From positions 992,001 through 1,056,000 of the forward strand of contig CAVSBQ010000002.1 of the NCBI GenBank assembly GCA_963726265.1: DNA of 64,000 nucleotides, read 5' to 3'. This DNA is from Candidatus Aenigmatarchaeota archaeon. GTDB lineage: Archaea > Aenigmatarchaeota > Aenigmatarchaeia > QMZP01 > QMZT01. The translations under genes were made by a program, and so were the position numbers. A model generated the notes under the pieces. It did not search any database, was not told the origin of the DNA, and saw only the letters and a list, made by a program, of their open reading frames with translations. Of the stretch, positions 16,899 to 26,340 are shown in pieces (within the stretch, counting starts at the first letter, position 1; every line of letters starts with the position of its first letter).

Positions 16899-17381
16899 TC
16901 ATGCGTCCCCCTTCCTCCCGAAGTAGAGCTTGAAGCCCGCAAAAAGACCCAGAATCACGAAGAACACGAGCCAGATGAAATACCTGACCGGTATGTCCGG
17001 CAGCCCCAGCTCCTCCATGAACATCTGGTAGAATGCCGCCGCGAGCAGGAACCACACGGTCCCGATCATCGCGTACCTGCCTGCCCTGTTTTCGATCTTT
17101 TCGGACCTCTCGTCACGAAGAGGAATGCCAGCTTTCACGGCCCTGTCCCGCCTCCTCACGAGGAGCACGAGCAGGGCAAGAATGGGTATAAGAGGTATGA
17201 GTGTGACAAAGAACATTGGGTTGATCCCGCCGGACCCCTCGGAGCCCGCATAACCCATCTCAACATACAATATGAGCAGCCAGAACGCCACCACAAGGGC
17301 TCCGAAGATCCCCGCTGAAATCTTCATTACAGTCATCTTCTTTCGCTCTTTCTTCCTTTTACCTTCTCCTGCATCTTTCAT
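16899..17381 (-). CDS. Membrane protein, DUF2178-like
   Basis: Four TM segments with a DER motif, directly upstream of the XRE gene, which is the usual pairing. Confidence 0.75.
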
Positions 17382-17390
17382 ATCATCACC

Positions 17391-17431
17391 ATGTTATATA
17401 ATTATAACATTATGTTATATATTTATAACAT
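17391..17431. promoter_or_regulatory. Tandem palindromic operators ATGTTATA-N4-TATAACAT (two copies)
   Basis: Exact copies at 17391-17410 and 17412-17431, between the TATA box and the start of the membrane protein-XRE operon. Confidence 0.8.
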
Positions 17432-17548
17432 AGTATATTTAAAGGTTTTTTGGAGGTCGAAGGTCAATGCTAGAGATAACAGAGAAGGTTGGAGATTAAA
17501 AGTTGAGTAAAAATGATTTTAAAGCATCTTTGATAAACATCAAGTATT

Positions 17549-18850
17549 ATGACTACAAAAGAAATTCTCGACCCATTTAAACCGAGAAATTTTGTTATAA
17601 AATCATTAAATAAATTTAAATTTGAATATAGTGAGGAATATCAAAGATCAGAAGTATGGACTCCGGCACAAAAACAAAAATTAATCGACTCTATATTACG
17701 TTCTTATCCTATAGGTATCTTTGTTTTTATTAAAAAAGGTAAAAATAAATTTGAGGTTATAGATGGTCAACAAAGACTTAAAACTATTCAGGAATTTAAA
17801 AAAAATAAATGGAAAACTTCTAAAGAGAATGCTCTAGCTGAAAATAAATATTATAAAGATATTGAAAAAGTTGATAGTTTAAAAACCGCATTAGATGGTT
17901 TTAAGATATGGTACATACCGATAAGTAATGCAGAAGATGAACAAGTATGTGATATTTTTATAAGATTACAAGAAGGTACTCCCACTAACACACCGGAAAA
18001 GTTAAATGCGATGAAGGGTGAAATAAGAAATCTTATTTATAGATTAAGTAAAGATTTAAAATTCATTAAAAAAACATCAATTACTACTCACAGATTTAAA
18101 CACAGAGAAATTTTGGCACAAATTTCTTTGTTGGAAATCGAATTTTTATCTAAAGCTATTTTTCCAGAATTTCCAAATTTGAGATTTAAGCCCCTAAAAG
18201 AAATGTATTTATCTCATAAAGATGACATACCGCCACATCTAAAAAATGATATTATAAAAACTTTTAATTTTCTCGATCATTGTTTCAAAAAATCAGCGAA
18301 ATTCATAACAAATAATGGAGATTTGATGCAAGTATATTTAGTCGCTTCAATACTATCAAAAAAATACTCATTAAATGAAAAATCAAAAAAGATTTTCGCT
18401 AAATCAGTAGAAAATTTTTTAATTAATACTGCAAGCGCAACAAAAGCTATTGAAGAACTAAGTAAAGAAGATATAGAAAAGGATCCTATAACACATTATT
18501 CATCTCTCCGAAGCAAAGGACAAACTAAAGAAAATATTAAAACAAAATTTTTAATTATTTCAAATTATATTTTTGAAAAACTTAAAGAAGCTGAGCCAAT
18601 ATTCAAAAAGGACGAGAAAAGATACTTTGATCTTTGTCAGAAAATTTATGTATATTATAAAAAAGATAAAGGCAAATGCCAAAAATCTGATTGTCAAAAA
18701 GATGTAAATTGGGAAGATGCAAGTTTTCATCATAAAGATTTTCATTCAAACAGTGGTAAAACGATAATTAAAAATTGCCAACTCATGCATAAAAAATGTC
18801 ATGTGGATTTTCATTCTATAAAAAAAGATTCTGATGAATTTATAAGTTAA
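17549..18850 (+). CDS. DUF262 (GmrS/ParB-like) plus C-terminal HNH nuclease
   Basis: YQR..VW, IDSIL, IDGQQR and IFIRLQ motifs; C-terminal CQ..DC...HH...G...N...H..CH. Confidence 0.88.
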   Translation: MTTKEILDPFKPRNFVIKSLNKFKFEYSEEYQRSEVWTPAQKQKLIDSILRSYPIGIFVFIKKGKNKFEVIDGQQRLKTIQEFKKNKWKTSKENALAENKYYKDIEKVDSLKTALDGFKIWYIPISNAEDEQVCDIFIRLQEGTPTNTPEKLNAMKGEIRNLIYRLSKDLKFIKKTSITTHRFKHREILAQISLLEIEFLSKAIFPEFPNLRFKPLKEMYLSHKDDIPPHLKNDIIKTFNFLDHCFKKSAKFITNNGDLMQVYLVASILSKKYSLNEKSKKIFAKSVENFLINTASATKAIEELSKEDIEKDPITHYSSLRSKGQTKENIKTKFLIISNYIFEKLKEAEPIFKKDEKRYFDLCQKIYVYYKKDKGKCQKSDCQKDVNWEDASFHHKDFHSNSGKTIIKNCQLMHKKCHVDFHSIKKDSDEFIS

Positions 18851-18869
18851 TTATCAATAATTTTTCTAT

Positions 18870-19442
18870 ATGGAACATGAAATTCATGAAGCAGTTCTTA
18901 AAAGACAAAGAGATGCTCAAAAAAGTGGAGACCGGTTTGAAATATTTGTAAAGAATTTTCTTAACAAAAAACTAAAACATAGAGATATTGCAATTTTAAG
19001 AGGAAAAGAAATTAAATGTGATTCTCCACTTTGGGAAAAATTAGCTATACCTGTTGAGAAACTAGGTTCGAAGCAAAAAATATGGGGTGATGTAGATCTA
19101 GTTGCAATTAGAGGAAAATTTCCAAACATAAAAATTATAGCTATTATAAGCTGTAAAGTGAGTTTACATGGTCGTTTTTCTGAAACACTTTTTTATGCTT
19201 TGATATGGAAAAAAAAATTACATCATGTTAAGGTAATTTTTGTAACACCAGATAAAGGTAGACAACAAAAAGGACCTTGGAAATCTGAGTGGGGTAGTGA
19301 AGAAAAACCAACAAAGGACAGGTTACTAGGTAGTCATTTTTTAGATGGCATATACGTTTATAATAAGAGAACTAAACTTGGTGGTATGATAAAACCATTA
19401 GAAGATTCGCCAAAAGATTTAATAAAATGGTGCATAAGTTGA
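18870..19442 (+). CDS. Putative type II restriction endonuclease (PD-(D/E)xK, BsaWI/Ecl18kI-like architecture)
   Basis: SGDRFE, GDVDLVAI and IISCKVSLHGR motifs; lies next to a methyltransferase. Confidence 0.65.
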   Translation: MEHEIHEAVLKRQRDAQKSGDRFEIFVKNFLNKKLKHRDIAILRGKEIKCDSPLWEKLAIPVEKLGSKQKIWGDVDLVAIRGKFPNIKIIAIISCKVSLHGRFSETLFYALIWKKKLHHVKVIFVTPDKGRQQKGPWKSEWGSEEKPTKDRLLGSHFLDGIYVYNKRTKLGGMIKPLEDSPKDLIKWCIS

Positions 19443-19493
19443 TTCTTAAATAAACATCTTCAATGTTTTAAAACTTTCTTATAAAACTTTATC

Positions 19494-20017
19494 ATGGAAA
19501 TGGAAAGAAACAAGTATGACAAAAAAAATTGTTTAGAAAAGGGTATAAATGCTGAGGAACAGTTTCATAAAATTGCTGAAAATAGAAATTGGAAAGTTAC
19601 TCATTCTACATCAGAACAGGATATCAATGAACATTGGGACAGGTTGATTGAAAAAAATGGCAAATCATATAAAGTCGATGTTAAGGCGATGAAAAGAATG
19701 AGAAGACAAGATAATAATGCACAGGATACATGGGTTTGGATCGACTTTATGGTGTAAGACCATATGACGAGGGATGGATATATGGCGCTAAATCAGATCT
19801 TATAGCCTTTGAAAAAATGAATTCATTTATCATAGTTAAACGTTCTGACCTGATAAATCTGATTCCTAGAATTATAGATATGAATTCTTTAGTAAGAAAA
19901 GTTGAGGATGCAAAATATAAGATTTATCAGAGAGAAAGCAGACCTGATAAAATTTCATTAATTGAAATTGAAAAATTAAATGATATTAAATGGGACGAAT
20001 GGGAGAAAATTTTATAG
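19494..20017 (+). pseudogene. PD-(D/E)xK nuclease split by an apparent 1-nt deletion near 19745
   Basis: GINAEEQF, HWD and VDVKA in ORF 19494-19757 continue as LYGVRPYDEGWIYG..DLIAFE in ORF 19730-20017. Confidence 0.7.
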
Positions 20018-20018
20018 A

Positions 20019-20793
20019 TTAACATTTAAATGTTTTGAGATCCATCTGACTCAATTGTCTTTTTGCATAATTTAATCTTTTTTCAGCTGTTTTGCAATAT
20101 TCTGATGATATGTCAATATGTATGAATCTGCGATCTGTTTTTAGAGCAACCACGGCTACGGTTCCTGTTCCACCAAACATATCCAGAACAACATTATCCT
20201 TGTACGTATAAAATTTAATCAAGCGATATATCAATTCTTCTGGAAATGGTGCTGGATGACCATTTCTCTGTGTTTCCGGAGAAATATACCACATACCATC
20301 AGAAAATTTCATGAATTCGTCTTTTGTTATATCTGATTTTTTTTGATCTCCTTTCAATTTTGCCTTATCCTTTGAAAAAATCAGGACATACTCCCATGAA
20401 GGGACTATGTGAGGATTTGCTGGGCTTTTAAAACTCCCCCACGCAGTTCTTTTTAACATGGTTTGTTTATACCATAGAATTTCCGTTCTGAAAATCATAC
20501 CTAAATCTCTCAATTGACTGGCAAAATCATGGTGAATAGGAGTAAAATTCTTTATTCCCGTTGGTGCTATATTCAAAGCAAACCTGCCTCCAGGAACGAG
20601 TAGATGCTTTGTTTCTCTTCCAAACTTTGTTTAACCATTCAAGATACTCTTTATACTCCATTTTGTCATTGTGATTATCGTAATCTTTGCCTACATTATA
20701 AGGTGGTGAAGTAATCGCAAGATGAATACTATTGTCTGGTATTTTTTTCATCTCTTCCAATACGTCCCCGCAAATTATTTTACCGATTTCCAT
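20019..20793 (-). pseudogene. Beta-class N4/N6 DNA methyltransferase split by an apparent 1-nt insertion near 20617
   Basis: TSPPY in the 5' fragment; HPAPFP and VLDMFGGTGT in the 3' fragment. Rejoined it reads VWKETKHLLVPGGRFALNI. Confidence 0.88.
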
Positions 20794-20798
20794 TTATC

Positions 20799-21416
20799 TC
20801 ACGTTAATAATTCACCACTTAATAGGATTCTATATTTATGAGGTCTTTTATCTTTATTTATCTCAATTAGACCATTTTTCTCCAGCTCTCTAAGATGCTT
20901 TCTTAAAACCGGTTCTTCCGTTGACATTTTCTTGTTTTTCAAGAAATTTATAATATCTCTCAAATTATTGCACTCTCTAACAGCTCTGAGTACGGCAAAC
21001 TTTTCCTCTGAAAGCATTCTTTCATACATTATAAATTTTGGTATCTCAATCACTTGATTGTTTTCTTCTTGAATATAAATTATCCTCTCTGCCTTTGTAA
21101 CAGAACCTGCAAACGCAGCTGCTAGCGATAGAGTCTTCCTACCTCCAGTTATATTGATTGTTACATTATCATTTTCATTTATAACTCTCTTTATTTTTTC
21201 CAAATTTTCCATAAAAAAATATGGTGAAACCTCAACTTTCTCTACAATTATTTCCATATCTTTAGATATTTTTTCTAATTTTCTGAGTCCATCTTTTGCC
21301 TTTTTTGATACTAATTTATGAGAGATAAGAAGAATGAGTTTATCGCAGGGGAATTGTTTAATTCCTTGAATAATTCCATCAGGTTCCTCTCCGAAAGTAG
21401 AAATTAAAGTTTTCAT
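20799..21416 (-). CDS. CARF plus wHTH regulator (Csa3-like)
   Basis: LISTFG, DKLILL and NITGGRK CARF motifs; C-terminal wHTH (LRKHLRELEKNGLI). Confidence 0.82.
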   Translation of the reverse strand: MKTLISTFGEEPDGIIQGIKQFPCDKLILLISHKLVSKKAKDGLRKLEKISKDMEIIVEKVEVSPYFFMENLEKIKRVINENDNVTINITGGRKTLSLAAAFAGSVTKAERIIYIQEENNQVIEIPKFIMYERMLSEEKFAVLRAVRECNNLRDIINFLKNKKMSTEEPVLRKHLRELEKNGLIEINKDKRPHKYRILLSGELLT

Positions 21417-21527
21417 ATAAAATTATTATTTCAGATATATATAAAGTTAACTATCGTGGTTACATAGTTAATACTATGGTTATAAGATGGAAATTGCCAC
21501 TGATTTTGGGGAGTACATCAGAAACCG

Positions 21528-21539
21528 ATGTTTAAACAT
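21528..21539. promoter_or_regulatory. ATGTTTAAACAT palindrome, copy 3
   Basis: 4 nt before TTTTAAAA and 34 nt before ATG 21574. Confidence 0.8.
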
Positions 21540-21573
21540 AACCTTTTAAAACGAAACTCAAATTTCATATTGA

Positions 21574-21729
21574 ATGGTAACTATTTTATGTCCAAAATGT
21601 AAAGCGAAATTAGATATTTTTACTGAAAGAAAAATAACTTGGGTTAAATGCTGGCGCTGTGGATATCGAGGCAAAGTCGGTCACAAAGAACCATTCATTC
21701 ACAAGGCCGCGACGCCTGCTGAGATTTAG
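21574..21729 (+). CDS. 51-aa zinc-ribbon protein (not in ORF track)
   Basis: MVTILCPKCKAKLDIFTERKITWVKCWRCGYRG...; two CxxC pairs. Confidence 0.75.
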   Translation: MVTILCPKCKAKLDIFTERKITWVKCWRCGYRGKVGHKEPFIHKAATPAEI

Positions 21730-21752
21730 AAGAGAGGATTGCCTTTGATAAT

Positions 21753-21977
21753 ATGATGTGGAAAATGACAGAAATTAAAGACATTGGTAAAATGTTTGAA
21801 AAGAAAACTACAGCATTTCTTGCACTAGGTGCAATTTTATTGATTTTCTCTATGTACTTCAATACAACTAAGGAAAACTCTTCAAATATAGGAGTATGGA
21901 TTTCTACTATAATAATAGGTATAGCTCTATGCGCCCAAATAGTAAATTGGATAATTTATTGGTACAAAAAATATTAA
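21753..21977 (+). CDS. Small two-TM membrane protein
   Basis: Two hydrophobic helices. Confidence 0.6.
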   Translation: MMWKMTEIKDIGKMFEKKTTAFLALGAILLIFSMYFNTTKENSSNIGVWISTIIIGIALCAQIVNWIIYWYKKY

Positions 21978-22020
21978 TTTTTAAGAAAAAGGGATTGCCG
22001 CTTGTGATTGGTGGGAACAA

Positions 22021-22251
22021 ATGAAAAAAGAAACAAACCATGATAAATTCGTGAAAGCCTTCAAGGGAATGGAAGGCCGAACGCTTGAAACAAAGGAAAT
22101 AAAGCGAATATTGAAAAGCAAAACCAACATAGAAGAAGGTAGCATACTGCCAAACGACCATGCAAGCGGCAATAAATGTCCATGCAGCTGTGCGGCAACG
22201 GAAAACAGGGTTTTTGATAGAATTAAACGCGGTTTCTATAAAGTGAGATAA
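22021..22251 (+). CDS. Small basic protein, possibly wHTH-like
   Basis: 76 aa ending FDRIKRGFYKVR; contains a CPCSC cluster. Confidence 0.6.
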   Translation: MKKETNHDKFVKAFKGMEGRTLETKEIKRILKSKTNIEEGSILPNDHASGNKCPCSCAATENRVFDRIKRGFYKVR

Positions 22252-22296
22252 CTAATGTGGGATTGCCGCTGGTTTTGGGGAGTTCCAACTAAAATT

Positions 22297-23070
22297 TTAT
22301 AAGTCCTCAACATTTCCGATTTTGATATACACAGAACCTTCTAGCGTGCCACCAGATATTTTAAGCCTTAAGCCAGTATCATCTCCCGGAACATCGAAAA
22401 CTATGCCGCCCTCGGATGTCAGGCCTGGGCCAATTTTATCAAACATAGGCAGAGGGGTGTATCCCATCTGACTCATGTAAATGGATGCAGTAGTATCCGT
22501 TTCATATTCCCTGCTTTTACTATCAAGTAGCTTGAAATTATTATAGGATAAATATTCAGATTTTTTACCGCTGTTTTCTACAGACATAATAAGAATTACA
22601 AACATTCCTTTAGCTTCTACACCAAGATAACCCCCGCCGATATAAGGAAGTTGCATAACATCCGTAACAATGTATGAAAAATCACCAATTGTCACTTTAT
22701 CACCGATAGAAGCTTCATAATCACATCTTTCAGTGATTGTTTTCATATTTTTTTGGCAAACATTCATTGAAGAATTCTGTAGGCAAATTTGGTCAATAAT
22801 GTTCTTCGCGTATCCTTCTGTAACATAATTCTTACCACAGTTGTTTTGATCATAACAAGGTATAACTCTGAAACCTGGAGATATACATTCACTAGCAGCG
22901 GAACATTTATAATCAGAAACACACGATGGAAGTTGATTTTGTTTAGGTTGTGACGTTTCTGTGGGTATATATGTTGTATCATCTCTAACTATATTTCCTG
23001 TGTTCACACAACCGGAACTAAATAAAATAGCTATTATTAAGACCGGAAGTATGAGGATTTTCGCCCTCAT
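22297..23070 (-). CDS. Lipoprotein with a C-terminal DUF4352-like Ig domain
   Basis: Lipobox SSGC, Cys-rich linker, VENSGK...FKLLDS..REY and GGIVFDVP motifs. Confidence 0.78.
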   Translation of the reverse strand: MRAKILILPVLIIAILFSSGCVNTGNIVRDDTTYIPTETSQPKQNQLPSCVSDYKCSAASECISPGFRVIPCYDQNNCGKNYVTEGYAKNIIDQICLQNSSMNVCQKNMKTITERCDYEASIGDKVTIGDFSYIVTDVMQLPYIGGGYLGVEAKGMFVILIMSVENSGKKSEYLSYNNFKLLDSKSREYETDTTASIYMSQMGYTPLPMFDKIGPGLTSEGGIVFDVPGDDTGLRLKISGGTLEGSVYIKIGNVEDL

Positions 23071-23102
23071 GTTTTAGAATTCTAAACTAGCTTTAAAACC
23101 CT

Positions 23103-23114
23103 ATGTTTAAACAT
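23103..23114. promoter_or_regulatory. ATGTTTAAACAT palindrome, copy 4
   Basis: On the - strand it is followed by AGGG TTTTAAAG and lies 32 nt before ATG 23070. Confidence 0.8.
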
Positions 23115-23185
23115 CACCTTCCCAATTATGGGTAAGAAGATGGAGAAGGCTCGTGGGATGCCGCCGGTTCCTGGCTTAGACTGGT

Positions 23186-23479
23186 TCAGTCCTTGCAGCA
23201 CTTATCGTACTTCTCGAACTTCCTGCCGTACTTGATGCCCCAGCTCGCCCAGCCTGCGCCCATTATGGCGATGAAGGCTAGGACTGCGACAAGGAAGACG
23301 GCGACGTTCTGGTATAGTGTGAACTTGTCCGCGAAGAAGAACAGCCATACGATGAAGAACGCCACGATTCCGAAGACGGAGATTATCGAAATCGCTACCC
23401 TCAAGCCGAAGCCCGGCGTGTCTTCCGGACGCTGGTATTCCTTCGCTTTCTCTCCCCTTACCACTTTTTTCTTTGGCAT
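23186..23479 (-). CDS. Small two-TM membrane protein
   Basis: Two TM helices; GAGGTG Shine-Dalgarno before ATG 23479. Confidence 0.7.
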   Translation of the reverse strand: MPKKKVVRGEKAKEYQRPEDTPGFGLRVAISIISVFGIVAFFIVWLFFFADKFTLYQNVAVFLVAVLAFIAIMGAGWASWGIKYGRKFEKYDKCCKD

Positions 23480-23636
23480 TTTCCACCTCATTGATAATGA
23501 TTTTCGTACTTTTTATATAATGTGGTTCAATTTCCTCTATATTTGGTTTTGCCGCGACTTAAAATCCTTCATTCGGGCGGACGAGGCTCAGGTTAAATTT
23601 ATAAAATTTGGTTTCAATCCTGAATTATGGTGAATT

Positions 23637-23906: not shown

Positions 23907-23985
23907 ACGCGAATTCGCGGATTCTGAAACATCTTAATTTTGAGCGCTGACAACCCAACCCCCGAGTGTTATCTTTATATAACAG

Positions 23986-24005
23986 TTGTAATAATATTAT
24001 TACAA
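23986..24005. promoter_or_regulatory. 20-bp perfect palindrome (probable operator of the MNT-HEPN operon)
   Basis: TTGTAATAATATTATTACAA, with an imperfect second copy at 24008-24025. Confidence 0.72.
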
Positions 24006-24034
24006 GTGTAATAAAAATATATTACTGTGGGAAT

Positions 24035-24571
24035 ATGTGGGAGAATTACAACAAATACATGGTCTTCAAGGTCTTCCTTGACGACCCCATGCCCAAAGCC
24101 GGATTCCAGCTGAGGGAAATAAGCAGGATGGTGAAGCTCGCGCCCAAATCGGTGGGCATCTACCTGGCAGAGCTGGAAAAGGAAGGCCTTGTCATAAAGG
24201 AAAGGCAAAAGGCGACGGGATACCCGGTTTATTTTGCCAGCAGGAACAGCGAGATGTTCAGGTTTTACAGGAAGCTTGACGTTGTCCATTCCATAAAAAC
24301 AAGCGGGCTGCTTGATTATTTGTGCGATAAAACCACGCCGGATGTCATAGTCTTGTTCGGCTCGGCGTCGAGGGGCGAGGACACGCAAGAAAGCGACATC
24401 GACCTGTTCGTGCAGTGCGCCGGAAGGAAGCTTGACTTATCCGGTTTCGAAAAGCTCCTGAAGAGAAAAATCAGCATATTGTTCGGCGAAAATTTCAAAG
24501 AGCTCAGCGACGAGCTCAAGAACAATGTTATAAACGGCATAATACTCAAAGGGTATCTGAAGGTGTTCTGA
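24035..24571 (+). CDS. HTH plus MNT antitoxin
   Basis: LREISRMVKL wHTH and LFGSASRGED..SDIDL motif. Confidence 0.88.
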   Translation: MWENYNKYMVFKVFLDDPMPKAGFQLREISRMVKLAPKSVGIYLAELEKEGLVIKERQKATGYPVYFASRNSEMFRFYRKLDVVHSIKTSGLLDYLCDKTTPDVIVLFGSASRGEDTQESDIDLFVQCAGRKLDLSGFEKLLKRKISILFGENFKELSDELKNNVINGIILKGYLKVF

Positions 24572-24572
24572 A

Positions 24573-24983
24573 ATGGATATGGGTTTAGTTGACGTCACCA
24601 AAGACAAGGTCAAGGCAAAATCGATTCTCGCGATGGCTGAAGTCACGCTGGAGATGATCAAAACGATAGATGAGAAAAGGTTCGCCTCCAACCTGGTGAA
24701 AGAGTATTATGACGTCATAAGAGAGCTTATTTCTGCAATTATGCTTCTTGACGGATACAAAACCCGCGGTGAAGGCGCCCATATAAAGGCCATAGAATAC
24801 ATGCGGGAAAACTACAAGCAGCTTTCAGAGCTTGAGATTTCCGCCATTGACGACCTCAGGGAAAAGAGGAACAGGATAGCATACAACGGGTTTTTCGTCC
24901 AGCCCGATTATGTCGTGAGGAGAAAGCAGACGCTGGCTGGCATAATATCCAAACTCACGGAGACAATAAAAAAGCGCCTTTAG
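24573..24983 (+). CDS. HEPN-domain toxin
   Basis: YYDVIREL, GAH and RNRIAY (R-x4-Y) motifs; follows the MNT gene. Confidence 0.8.
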   Translation: MDMGLVDVTKDKVKAKSILAMAEVTLEMIKTIDEKRFASNLVKEYYDVIRELISAIMLLDGYKTRGEGAHIKAIEYMRENYKQLSELEISAIDDLREKRNRIAYNGFFVQPDYVVRRKQTLAGIISKLTETIKKRL

Positions 24984-25111: not shown

Positions 25112-25840
25112 TCAACCGAATTTCTTTTTCAGTGCTTTAATGCATTCCATGTAGCCGAGCTTTTTGTTCGTGAGTGAGCTGATGTCGGAATCCCAGCGTG
25201 AATAGATTTTGTTTGCATTTCTGAATATCCTTTCCGTGTCGAATCTTTCGCCTGCTTCTTTCACTTTCCTTTTGACAAGCCCCATGTCCACGCTGTGCTT
25301 TTGGAGTATGAAATAGGCGTCAAAATAATCTCTGGGCTGGTTTCTGGTTATCAGCGCCCTTACCTTTTCTGCGATTATCTCCCTGATATTCAGCGTGTTT
25401 ATGCTGAAATCCAAGCCGTAAAAATTAGGCATTTTGTGTTTTTCCGGCTTAAGATGTATCGAAGCTTTGCGATTCACGTCGGCGATTATGAAGGATTCTG
25501 CCTGAAAATAGCTCCTGTAATATACCAGATATCTGACAAAATCTTTGGTCGTTTTGTCGGTCCTGATCCTCGTGAAGAAACCGCTGTTTTCGACTGCCCT
25601 TTCGAGTTCATTCCTTATTTCACGAACCGGCCTGTCCGCGGCGAAGTCGAGATCCTCGGAAAGCCTGGCATGATCTAAAAATATTTTGTTCAGGGCTGTT
25701 CCGCCTTTGAGATAAATGCCTCTGATGCCCTTTGTCAGATAAAGGAATACCGTCAGAAAGTAGTCCTTCTCTATGTAAATAAGGTTTAGCCCCTTCATGC
25801 CGGCTATATATCTCAGCTTATTCTCCGAAATCATCTCCAT
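25112..25840 (-). CDS. abiEii: AbiEii-family nucleotidyltransferase toxin (type IV TA)
   Basis: IEKDY, LKGGTAL, RLSEDLDF, AEKVRA and RDYFD motifs. Confidence 0.92.
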   Translation of the reverse strand: MEMISENKLRYIAGMKGLNLIYIEKDYFLTVFLYLTKGIRGIYLKGGTALNKIFLDHARLSEDLDFAADRPVREIRNELERAVENSGFFTRIRTDKTTKDFVRYLVYYRSYFQAESFIIADVNRKASIHLKPEKHKMPNFYGLDFSINTLNIREIIAEKVRALITRNQPRDYFDAYFILQKHSVDMGLVKRKVKEAGERFDTERIFRNANKIYSRWDSDISSLTNKKLGYMECIKALKKKFG

Positions 25841-26340
25841 TTACGGCTCTCCTCCTTAGTCGCTATAAGGGCGCTGTGCCTTTGGATGGTTATCTTCGTG
25901 TGTTTCGGAAGCTTCCTGACTCTCCTAAACCTTATCGTGAAGCCGAAAAATACGACATTTCCCTGCCTGGTCATGCTGAAAACCTCTGTTTCCGCGGGTA
26001 TCTGCTCTATGAGCCCCCAGTAATGCGCTGCGCTCTTACCGCCTATGCAATATCCTTTGCCATTGCACATTTCATCGGTTACTATGAAAGGATGCTCCGA
26101 CCACTTTCCGTGGTAGGCTTGCATGGGAACAAGGTAGTATTTTTCCCTGTTAATTTTCACAAGCCTTCCCTTTTTCATCAGCCTATGCATGTAGACATTC
26201 ATCTCGTTTCTGCTTCCGAAAAACCTTTCAACATCGTTACGACTGAAGAATCTTTTGTTGTCCAGTTCAAGGTATGAGACCATCTCCATCTCTTTACCTG
26301 AAAGACTGTTCACCCGTTTTTGTGTTTTGCCTACCTTCAT
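25831..26340 (-). CDS. abiEi: AbiEi-family antitoxin/regulator
   Basis: N-terminal wHTH (RLMKKGRLVKI..EKY) and SAAHYWGLIEQIP motif; overlaps abiEii. Confidence 0.88.
   Translation of the reverse strand: MKVGKTQKRVNSLSGKEMEMVSYLELDNKRFFSRNDVERFFGSRNEMNVYMHRLMKKGRLVKINREKYYLVPMQAYHGKWSEHPFIVTDEMCNGKGYCIGGKSAAHYWGLIEQIPAETEVFSMTRQGNVVFFGFTIRFRRVRKLPKHTKITIQRHSALIATKEESRKWR

Follow-up and report, generated by a model that had tools for sequence, protein, structure and literature searches.

Detached 3' ends of a zinc-ribbon gene between defence genes of an aenigmatarchaeal genomic island: candidate joints for the exchange of gene modules

The window analysed here is a stretch of 64,000 nucleotides (C2:992001-1056000) from the 1.13-Mb genome of a Candidatus Aenigmatarchaeota archaeon (52 % GC, 88 % complete). 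Within an AT-rich defence island of this window lie three small genes in tight succession, and the spaces at their borders are occupied by four co-oriented copies of a short motif, W1 to W4. This motif consists of coding sequence and represents the invariant C-terminus K-[KR]-G-L-P-L-[VI]-[LI]-G of an uncharacterised family of zinc-ribbon proteins of about 100 aa, here named Znr, and each copy, in the following referred to as a tail, is the last 8-12 codons of a Znr gene (K-[KR]-G-L-P-L-V-L-G-S-(K)-stop). The same 24-39-bp block was present in 38 metagenome contigs and several metagenome-assembled genomes (MAGs), where most copies were orphans that immediately follow the stop codon of an unrelated defence gene. 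We consider it moderately probable that the tails are recombination joints at which defence modules are swapped or inserted by crossover. The detached gene ends at the joints of defence genes suggest a little-known way of shuffling these genes.

W1 (21491..21514, + strand; K-L-P-L-I-L-G-S) lies inside a 19-codon open reading frame (ORF; 21476-21535) between divergent promoters, with no zinc-ribbon body upstream. It agrees with W4 in 20 of 24 nucleotides, or in 20 of 22 when counted from ATTGCC. The first cassette gene of the ORF list (21574..21729, +) codes for a 51-aa zinc-ribbon protein with weak zinc-ribbon matches in Pfam and ends with TAG; its profile match to the Znr family is weak as well (probability 86 %) and mainly due to the tail. 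W2 (21730..21756, core from 21736, +; K-R-G-L-P-L-I-I-stop) follows in frame immediately after this TAG and overlaps the ATG of the second cassette gene (21753..21977, +), a 74-aa ORF with two hydrophobic helices. This is an ORFan, the database search for homologues having returned only the protein itself. W3 (21983..22024, core from 21992, +; K-K-K-G-L-P-L-V-I-G-G-N-K-stop, KKKGLPLVIGGNK-stop) stands in the -1 frame relative to the second gene, and its TGA overlaps the ATG of the third (22021..22251, +), coding for a 76-aa DUF7225-like protein (PF23870, 28.1 bits vs. a cut-off of 27); a search for loci of DUF7225 relatives gave one poor match. W4 (22257..22292, core 22260-22283, +; V-G-L-P-L-V-L-G-S-S-N-stop) sits 4 nt from the stop of a convergent gene at 22297 and has GGGATTGCCGCT in common with W3 (12/12). 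The window thus holds three units of an ORF with a co-oriented site at its 3' end, a layout as in integrons.

A chance origin of W1-W4 was ruled out by a mismatch search, a peptide pattern and profile ranks. The 24-mer of the W4 core is a widespread form, the 'master' form, and was found identically in the loci L004 and L005 and in G001, a genome of the same genus. In the genome of the window it occurred at W4 only with up to three mismatches, and at W1 and W4 only with four. The word TTTTGGGGAGT is restricted genome-wide to W1 and W4, and GGATTGCCGCT has three occurrences, two of them in the array; the short word GGATTGCC alone is ordinary in the window (3 observed vs. 2.8 expected). An independent DNA profile of 41 distinct copies, all from other contigs, was run across the whole genome and ranked W4 first (E 5.9e-7), W3 second (E 1.2e-3), the end of a paralogous full-length gene (C2:177968) third, W1 fourth (E 0.063) and W2 ninth (E 2.9). 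The peptide pattern [GK]LPL[VIL][VIL] matched the six translated frames of the genome eight times; W1-W4 account for four of the matches, all on the + strand within 800 bp. An earlier note on this DNA had described a motif of uniform orientation, GC-rich within AT-rich surroundings, with matches of 20/22 and 12/12 and one small ORF between each pair of copies, and all of this was borne out, the surrounding DNA having about 31 % GC. A genome-wide search for the motif, which the note had proposed, gave the 24-mer with up to four mismatches in the array only, with no recombinase beside it. Of the five copies at five gene boundaries that had been counted, four stood; the fifth, W5 (23155..23169, +), was not supported. 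It was not among the profile matches in the genome even at E<=100 and was missing from a relative's contig covering this border, and its gapless alignment codon by codon (about 14/21, by eye) is at a level at which chance expects hundreds of matches genome-wide. Further candidates were rejected: a tRNA fragment or attachment site in a tRNA gene, as the window is without tRNA; a CRISPR or tandem repeat, which is at odds with a spacing of 245-268 bp and with spacers that are unrelated; and decayed tandem Znr paralogues, of which no body remnants were found. The word GCTGGT is reminiscent of a Chi site.

The coding origin is visible in two other MAG contigs that have the exact 22-mer; in L004 it closes a 98-aa ORF ending ERIERLKKRGLPLVLGSK-stop. 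For this ORF 42 homologues were found, 39 of them with a GLPL[VI] end, and in an alignment of 20 members (A1) the C-terminal G-L-P-L-V was invariant, likewise a K two places ahead of the G. A search with the Znr profile gave 215 clusters among 1.84 billion representatives. Seventy-five of 149 examined profile matches had G[LIFM]P within the last 30 residues, 49 as GLPT and 8 in the GLPL[V..] form of the window. The Znr body of about 100 aa consists of a CPxC ... (D)CPxCG zinc ribbon and two helices; an AlphaFold model (pLDDT 76) showed the zinc ribbon as a beta sheet, together with two helices and a tail predicted at low confidence, and a fold search in the PDB had no match at E<=0.001, weak MqsA-like zinc ribbons being the best. 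Invariant and apparently unstructured, the C-terminal peptide looks like a docking motif. Two proteins, P0048 (1841 aa) and P0115 (706 aa), contain 15 and 9 separate matches to the Znr profile, respectively, and are therefore repeat proteins built of the zinc-ribbon unit.

One whole Znr member is encoded elsewhere in the genome (C2:177951-178280), behind a gene for an Eco57I-like methylase. A homology of the two-helix ORF to the membrane ORF behind this paralogue was rejected (E 0.39). At the array itself no Znr body was found: the profile, compared to the six frames of 21300-22400, matched only the tails (profile positions 68-96, W3 at 81-95), thus the window copies are fragments and not Znr genes. 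W2, W3 and W4 conform to a C-terminal K-[KR]-G-L-P-L-[VI]-[LI] with a stop within 0-7 residues; W1 departs by a K instead of G and by a longer run-on. Compared to W4, W1-W3 carried 19 differences, distributed over the codon positions 1, 2 and 3 as 8, 1 and 10 (P = 0.005 for at most one at position 2). Of the 13 changed codons, six were synonymous and four were swaps among V, I and L. Since the differences avoid second codon positions and are mostly synonymous or V/I/L exchanges, the copies descend from translated gene ends, and both the GC-richness and the variation pattern of the motif follow from its being the conserved 3' end of a zinc-ribbon coding sequence. Over 35 nt, W3 had 89 % identity with the end of a complete Znr gene in G021, a genome of the same family, and judged from this likeness derives from a Znr type belonging to this family. 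W4 represents the master type, which has spread horizontally. The array hence combines tails of different descent. A few word searches of the literature gave no publication containing GLPLVL and none that joined three of the terms defence islands, zinc ribbons, type I restriction and YgjP; a term search in a study on Asgard mobile elements (PMC11529989) gave no passage on direct repeats, zinc ribbons or cassettes.

The distribution of the tail beyond the window was obtained by scanning metagenome contigs with an exact 20-nt word, which gave 46 loci, eight of them an unrelated GC-rich gene or chance matches. Together with L004, L005, L016 and the window, a non-redundant set of 46 tails resulted: nine close full-length Znr genes and 37 are orphans. 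The whole genes are typically ordered HsdR - YgjP-like - Znr or HsdM - HsdS - Znr and close restriction-modification (R-M) operons. Among the orphans, four are those of the window and four lie at contig edges, where at least two look like cut full-length genes. For 27 of the remaining 29, a co-oriented ORF of at least 45 codons stops 10-47 nt ahead of the tail; these genes include Schlafen-type and MZB helicases, Eco57I-like enzymes, methylases, BsuBI and small proteins. In a scan of the 254 ORFs of 42 loci, the neighbours of the tails were throughout R-M and defence genes. The conserved block (AAG)AAAAGGGGATTGCCGCTGGTTTTGGGGAG(T AAA TRA), coding for K-K-R-G-L-P-L-V-L-G-S-K-stop, is embedded in unrelated flanks, and its left homology border varies from 0 to about 28 codons ahead of GLPL. 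The longer remnants comprise 28 codons in L025 and L026 and about 20 codons with an internal stop in L045 and L058. Mini-ORFs starting at an ATG were read in about 6 of about 30 orphans, which is the chance level. Wherever a locus had two or more significant tails (6/6 loci), these were on one strand, as are W1-W4.

The titles of MAGs with the tail or the peptide pattern range over Aenigmatarchaeota, Promethearchaeota, Eubacteriales and Deltaproteobacteria, but the binning of islands in MAGs is unreliable and a spread across domains therefore tentative. Within the phylum the pattern K-R-G-L-P-L was rare, with 10 matches in 9 of 371 genomes: four whole Znr genes, one W2 and five at chance level (4 control matches). 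In L014 (4250-4276) and in P0068, the tail has gained or lost single bases in its T or G runs and is read differently as a result (GLPLVFGE-stop and KKRIAAGFGE...), while the tail DNA stays near the master form. The locus L067 (G010:C4), from a genome of the same family, has a whole Znr gene (1488-1790, -) and 1.2 kb apart a weak tail-like copy (266-296, -; K-R-E-L-P-L-V-L, 18/24 by direct count); the oppositely oriented gene between them (333 aa) gives a layout resembling W4, the convergent gene and W5.

Thirteen pairwise comparisons of loci, all ascertained by the tail itself, revealed that the tail marks places where homology starts or stops. In ten of the 13 pairs homology breaks at the tail edges, one flank (80-91 %) and the tail being common and the other flank unrelated. 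Six of these pairs have upstream DNA of 80-91 % identity and the tail in common with unrelated downstream DNA; four have the tail and downstream DNA of 82-90 % identity in common with unrelated upstream DNA. The other three rows were a pair with only 30 nt of common downstream DNA, a weaker pair (70 % upstream) and a repeat of the L037 comparison. In L039, the part left of the tail corresponds to L027 and the part to its right to L037. In five of the six pairs with a common upstream side, the linker beside the tail is 15-78 % identical (100 % in L005/L041), while the tail is 92-100 % identical.

Several loci carry tails on both sides of a module. In L028 a Znr gene with its tail is followed by a GHKL ATPase gene; in L004 the Znr gene and tail are followed by genes of 279 aa and 66 aa (the latter a zinc finger), a second tail and then the ATPase flank of L028, with 1128 bp between the tails. 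The 279-aa protein is PD-(D/E)XK-like, with only a weak Pfam match (PDDEXK_5, E 0.004), and PADLOC gave no match to it, to the 66-aa protein or to Znr. A homologous 279-aa gene (76 % identity) lies in L016 between a Znr gene and an orphan tail. The smallest module is a gene of 69 aa that forms a 250-bp cassette (tail, 7 nt, ORF, 11/12 nt, tail) in two contexts, L036 and L031; in L065 it has the downstream tail only.

The nucleotide form of the orphans differs from that of whole Znr genes. Gene ends of the own paralogue, G004, G010, G021 and L016 differ synonymously and agree with the master form in 15-17 of 24 positions by direct counts. In the orphans of other contigs the first 18 nt are without change, though most of these orphans were found through that word. 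Two cases are less subject to this bias. L016 was found by the peptide pattern, and its orphan matches the master form in 22 of 24 positions vs. 16 of 24 for the end of its own Znr gene. In the hot spot of the window, a helicase gene of the genome G001 is followed by an orphan that matches the master form in 24 of 24 positions, and the copy of this gene in G004 is without a tail; the helicase homology between them stops three to four codons ahead of the stop.

Orphan copies behind the stops of unrelated genes, breaks of homology at the tail edges, cassettes between two tails and a uniform orientation are the observations on which the interpretation as recombination joints is based. The tail is the most conserved DNA common to otherwise unrelated defence islands and would offer a crossover point for gene exchange or insertion; that many islands share these 24-39 bp results from the invariance of the Znr C-terminus. 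Crossing-over would take place inside the tail. A circular or incoming piece of one or more genes with a tail would recombine with a resident tail and leave a tail-gene-tail unit, and repeated single crossovers with circular or anchored pieces could have given the co-oriented array W1-gene-W2-gene-W3-gene-W4, probably an old and partly decayed product. We infer that a dedicated enzyme would not be needed; 24-39 bp of identity may suffice for general recombination, or the joining may be illegitimate and anchored by homology.

Several observations weigh against such joints. No recombinase was found near any of the 42 loci or in the window, and the variable left border gives no sign of one fixed cut. 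None of the readings accounts for the first arrival of a tail behind a new gene. Most loci were found by an exact 20-nt word, which biases the apparent conservation of the tail, and with the tight spacing of the genes, breakpoints at the tail could reflect only that it is the intergenic DNA present. Gain or loss of the window's own three cassettes was not seen; related genomes replace the whole island. In a relative of about 90-95 % likeness (X1/X2, two contig runs of one sample with 5 % of the words, the only sequencing runs found and neither of them RNA, covering the DUF4352 gene convergent on W4 and the right flank, and nothing between 20800 and 22258), a diverged tail stands beside the end of the DUF4352 gene and is more diverged than this gene, as a neutral relic would be. 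The rarity of K-R-G-L-P-L in the phylum implies that the array may have been imported ready-made. Since the Znr subtypes of L004 and L028 differ, their comparison also fits a replacement of everything left of the tail.

A dedicated cassette capture appears unlikely, yet it survives best among the other explanations. In this case the tail would be an attC-like site served by a recombinase encoded elsewhere, and genes with their tail would move as circles, like the modules of integrons or Xer-dependent dif modules. Co-oriented arrays of ORF and site, a linker that diverges beside a conserved tail and the L016 orphan, which is nearer to the master form than the Znr end of its own locus, agree with such a mechanism. 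The 250-bp cassette with the same borders in two contexts and the spread of the master form, a near-identical 24-33-bp block behind many unrelated genes of different lineages, are better explained by it than by homology-based joints. However, neither structure nor enzyme was found. Folds of both strands of the four junctions (8 folds, z -0.17 to +2.07) were no better than those of shuffles, Rfam had no match to the junctions at E<=1, and the attC boxes RYYYAAC/GTTRRRY were absent on reading the junctions. The consensus TTGAAGAAAAGGGGATTGCCGCTGGTTTTGGGGAGTAAA has direct (AAAAGGGGA / TTTTGGGGA) and not inverted arms, so that it lacks the dyad symmetry of a 28-bp Xer/dif site. Neither a tyrosine nor a serine recombinase was present among the 254 ORFs of the 42 loci within about 3 kb of the tails, where an IS-type rve transposase in L032 was the single mobile-element enzyme. 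No integrase, and hence no IntI beside the array, was detected among the 19 ORFs scanned from window 16.9-27.8 kb. The two tyrosine recombinases of the genome (PF00589; C2:110068 and C1:14061) are both far from the window, and a serine recombinase was not found in the 88 %-complete genome. An integrase within each unit beside a duplicated gene end, as in tandem accretion, was found neither in the 42 loci nor in the island. The viral, plasmid and phage collections searched held no match to the tail word or to Znr.

Of the earlier note, the absence of attC signatures and of an integrase in the window was confirmed, and breakpoints at the motif, the lack of which it had named as a refutation, exist in ten of the 13 pairs of other contigs. 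Its interpretation as insertion sites stood in so far as the joints are cassette-like, whereas an unrecognised gene-capture system acting in trans found no support in a recombinase, hairpin, dyad symmetry or fixed border. It is unlikely that uncultured sediment archaea and bacteria share a cassette system in which genes or small operons with a Znr-derived 24-39-bp site, the counterpart of attC, move between defence islands across phyla, driven by an as yet unrecognised recombinase or nuclease. Candidate drivers of such a system may be a host enzyme acting in trans or recurrent tail-side proteins such as the 279-aa PD-(D/E)XK-like protein.

That the tails are passive relics, i.e., ends without a role in recombination that linger after Znr genes were repeatedly destroyed by deletion or insertion, we regard as improbable. 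W1-W3 are diverged, with W2 and W3 severed from any body, longer remnants exist in L025/L026 and L045/L058, the tail of the relative is decaying, and the island contains other broken genes, all in accordance with decay. But more than 20 independent losses would have had to stop within a few codons of one point, which decay leaves unaccounted for, as it does the tail-cassette-tail units, and orphans from different contexts have the same synonymous codons, unlike whole Znr genes. A functional cis element, whether it separates convergent or tandem genes as a terminator or insulator or serves the gene that follows as a regulator or ribosome-binding site, is very improbable. The tail often fills the whole gap between two stops, a convergent ORF of at least 75 codons ends within 16 nt of it in about 15 of 46 cases, one strand carries T4 and the other T4CTT, and GGGGAG or GGTGG lies 5-9 nt ahead of the next ATG in W3, L036, L031 and L027. 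T4 is, however, short for an archaeal terminator, no stem-loop is present, and the next start codon is 37-230 nt off in most loci; in addition, W2 and W3 have retained the codons but not the two GGGGA runs. Hardly credible is a shared C-terminal docking peptide added by read-through (W2 after TAG, in frame right where the family has a Lys codon in an alignment by eye) or by -1 frameshift at the A6 run (21966-21971) from which the W3 frame could be reached by slippage: the genome commonly uses TAG as a stop, the 69-aa cassette gene has its tail in all three frames across L031, L036 and L065, the two-helix ORF has no tail-carrying homologue, the codon-structured variation among copies is explained by descent from different whole Znr genes, and the 27 orphans are distributed over the frames relative to the upstream ORF as 11:10:6 (11 in frame), without excess over one third, so that read-through is not the rule. 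A reassignment of TAG was rejected, as it closes 178 of 874 long frames and is an ordinary stop.

Recombination joints of this kind resemble several known systems in part. Integrons, including clusters of attC sites without integrase, have been reported in Archaea (10.1101/2022.02.06.479319 / PMC9668308). Integron cassettes are alike in consisting of co-oriented packed units with one or few ORFs and a short recombination-associated site, in forming arrays without a nearby recombinase and in carrying defence cargo. In contrast to attC, the tails are a fixed 24-39-bp coding piece and not a structured, variable imperfect hairpin with RYYYAAC/GTTRRRY boxes, and no IntI was found in the window scan, the 42 loci or the genome search. 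Acinetobacter carries dif modules that are bounded by pdif sites for XerC/XerD (PMC6449649, PMC13141974). These, too, are small accessory-gene modules without an own recombinase, described with sites of about 28 bp, shuffling between replicons and an enzyme in trans. The tails, without dyad symmetry, all in one direction, in chromosomal islands and derived from the end of a protein-coding gene, are unlike pdif sites, which have 11-6-11 inverted arms in alternating orientation and reside on plasmids.

Displaced gene pieces are also known from the orphan C-terminal toxin/immunity cassettes of rhs and cdiA, which keep a short conserved coding stretch as homology for module swaps. There the conserved piece lies at the 5' edge and within one large gene, whereas the tails are the 3' end of a 100-aa gene with unrelated whole genes between them. 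Integrative elements that use the 3' ends of genes for tRNAs or proteins as targets accumulate in tandem, and Tn7 inserts at the end of glmS; the gene end is duplicated in direct repeats. A conserved gene end as landing site is common to both, but such elements span kilobases and bring their own integrase or transposase beside the site, whereas a unit here can be as small as 250 bp, containing one small gene and lacking an enzyme. Mosaic lambdoid phages possess short boundary sequences at gene borders, thought to guide the homologous exchange of modules. Those are described from phage genomes; the tail, the end of a gene from which it is detached, lies in defence islands of cells and forms tandem direct repeats as well.

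The assembly of defence islands from unrelated modules is an open question, usually answered by mobile elements with integrases or by unexplained hot spots. A detached gene end that marks module joints in many uncultured lineages provides a searchable border marker and a concrete substrate for recombination assays. It is a cassette-associated site whose origin, the conserved C-terminus of a protein, is directly readable, and it brings out an uncharacterised zinc-ribbon family that closes R-M operons. Even if the joints were merely by-products of general recombination, they would exemplify how conserved coding microhomology shapes islands. If a dedicated cassette system were true, it would be a second, structurally different solution to the task of integrons, with a visible origin of the site; to our knowledge, the origin of the attC site is still an open question.

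The array belongs to an AT-rich island (17450..23190, 5.7 kb, 25-38 % GC) delimited by composition, flank conservation and gene content. In genomes of the same genus the left flank is kept up to window position 17448 (G002) and the right flank from 23192 onward (G004), and G001 and G004 have different defence genes between the same two flanks, therefore the stretch is a variable island in a hot spot that differs from species to species. By Pfam, its genes comprise GmrSD-like, BsaWI-like endonuclease, split N4/N6 methylase and CARF-winged-helix genes, in addition to the three small ORFs and a DUF4352 lipoprotein gene. The left neighbour of the array is a CARF and winged-helix regulator of the Csa3/CasR type (20799..21416, -; Pfam HFX_2341_N, Csa3_N and CARF; PADLOC CARF3/CasR/Csa3), and the DUF4352 gene (22297..23070, -; PF11611) is convergent on W4. 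A palindromic TATA-like box, ATGTTTAAACAT (21528..21539, +), lies about 35 nt upstream of the ATG at 21574 and is likely the promoter of the three small array genes; a second box (23103-23114) stands about 35 nt ahead of the start of the minus-strand gene at 23070. Both are the centres of a 24-nt repeat (21522-21545 and 23097-23120, 88 %), by its position likely a shared promoter box. The stretch 23006-23117 also has matches in the five related genomes G001, G002, G004, G012 and G021 and at C2:240956 of the own genome.

Other genes of the island are broken. The N4/N6 DNA methylase (20019-20793, -) is split into two overlapping frames of 88 aa and 185 aa near an intact ORF for the BsaWI-like endonuclease (18870-19442, +), which points to an R-M system in decay or else to a homopolymer error of the assembly. 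Two overlapping ORFs of 87 and 95 aa without Pfam match (19494-20017, +) are possibly the pieces of a single frameshifted gene. AT-rich direct and inverted repeats with TTATAACAT units overlap at the island's left border (17380-17440). Immediately to the right of the island, toxin-antitoxin-type pairs of a nucleotidyltransferase and a HEPN-like protein (23966-24983) and of AbiEii and AbiEi (25112-26340, -) were observed. A minus-strand membrane ORF (23186-23491) and the two-helix ORF of the array start alike (MRWKM and MMWKM, respectively), and the first 28 nt of both, 21753-21780 and 23464-23491, are 79 % complementary across strands.

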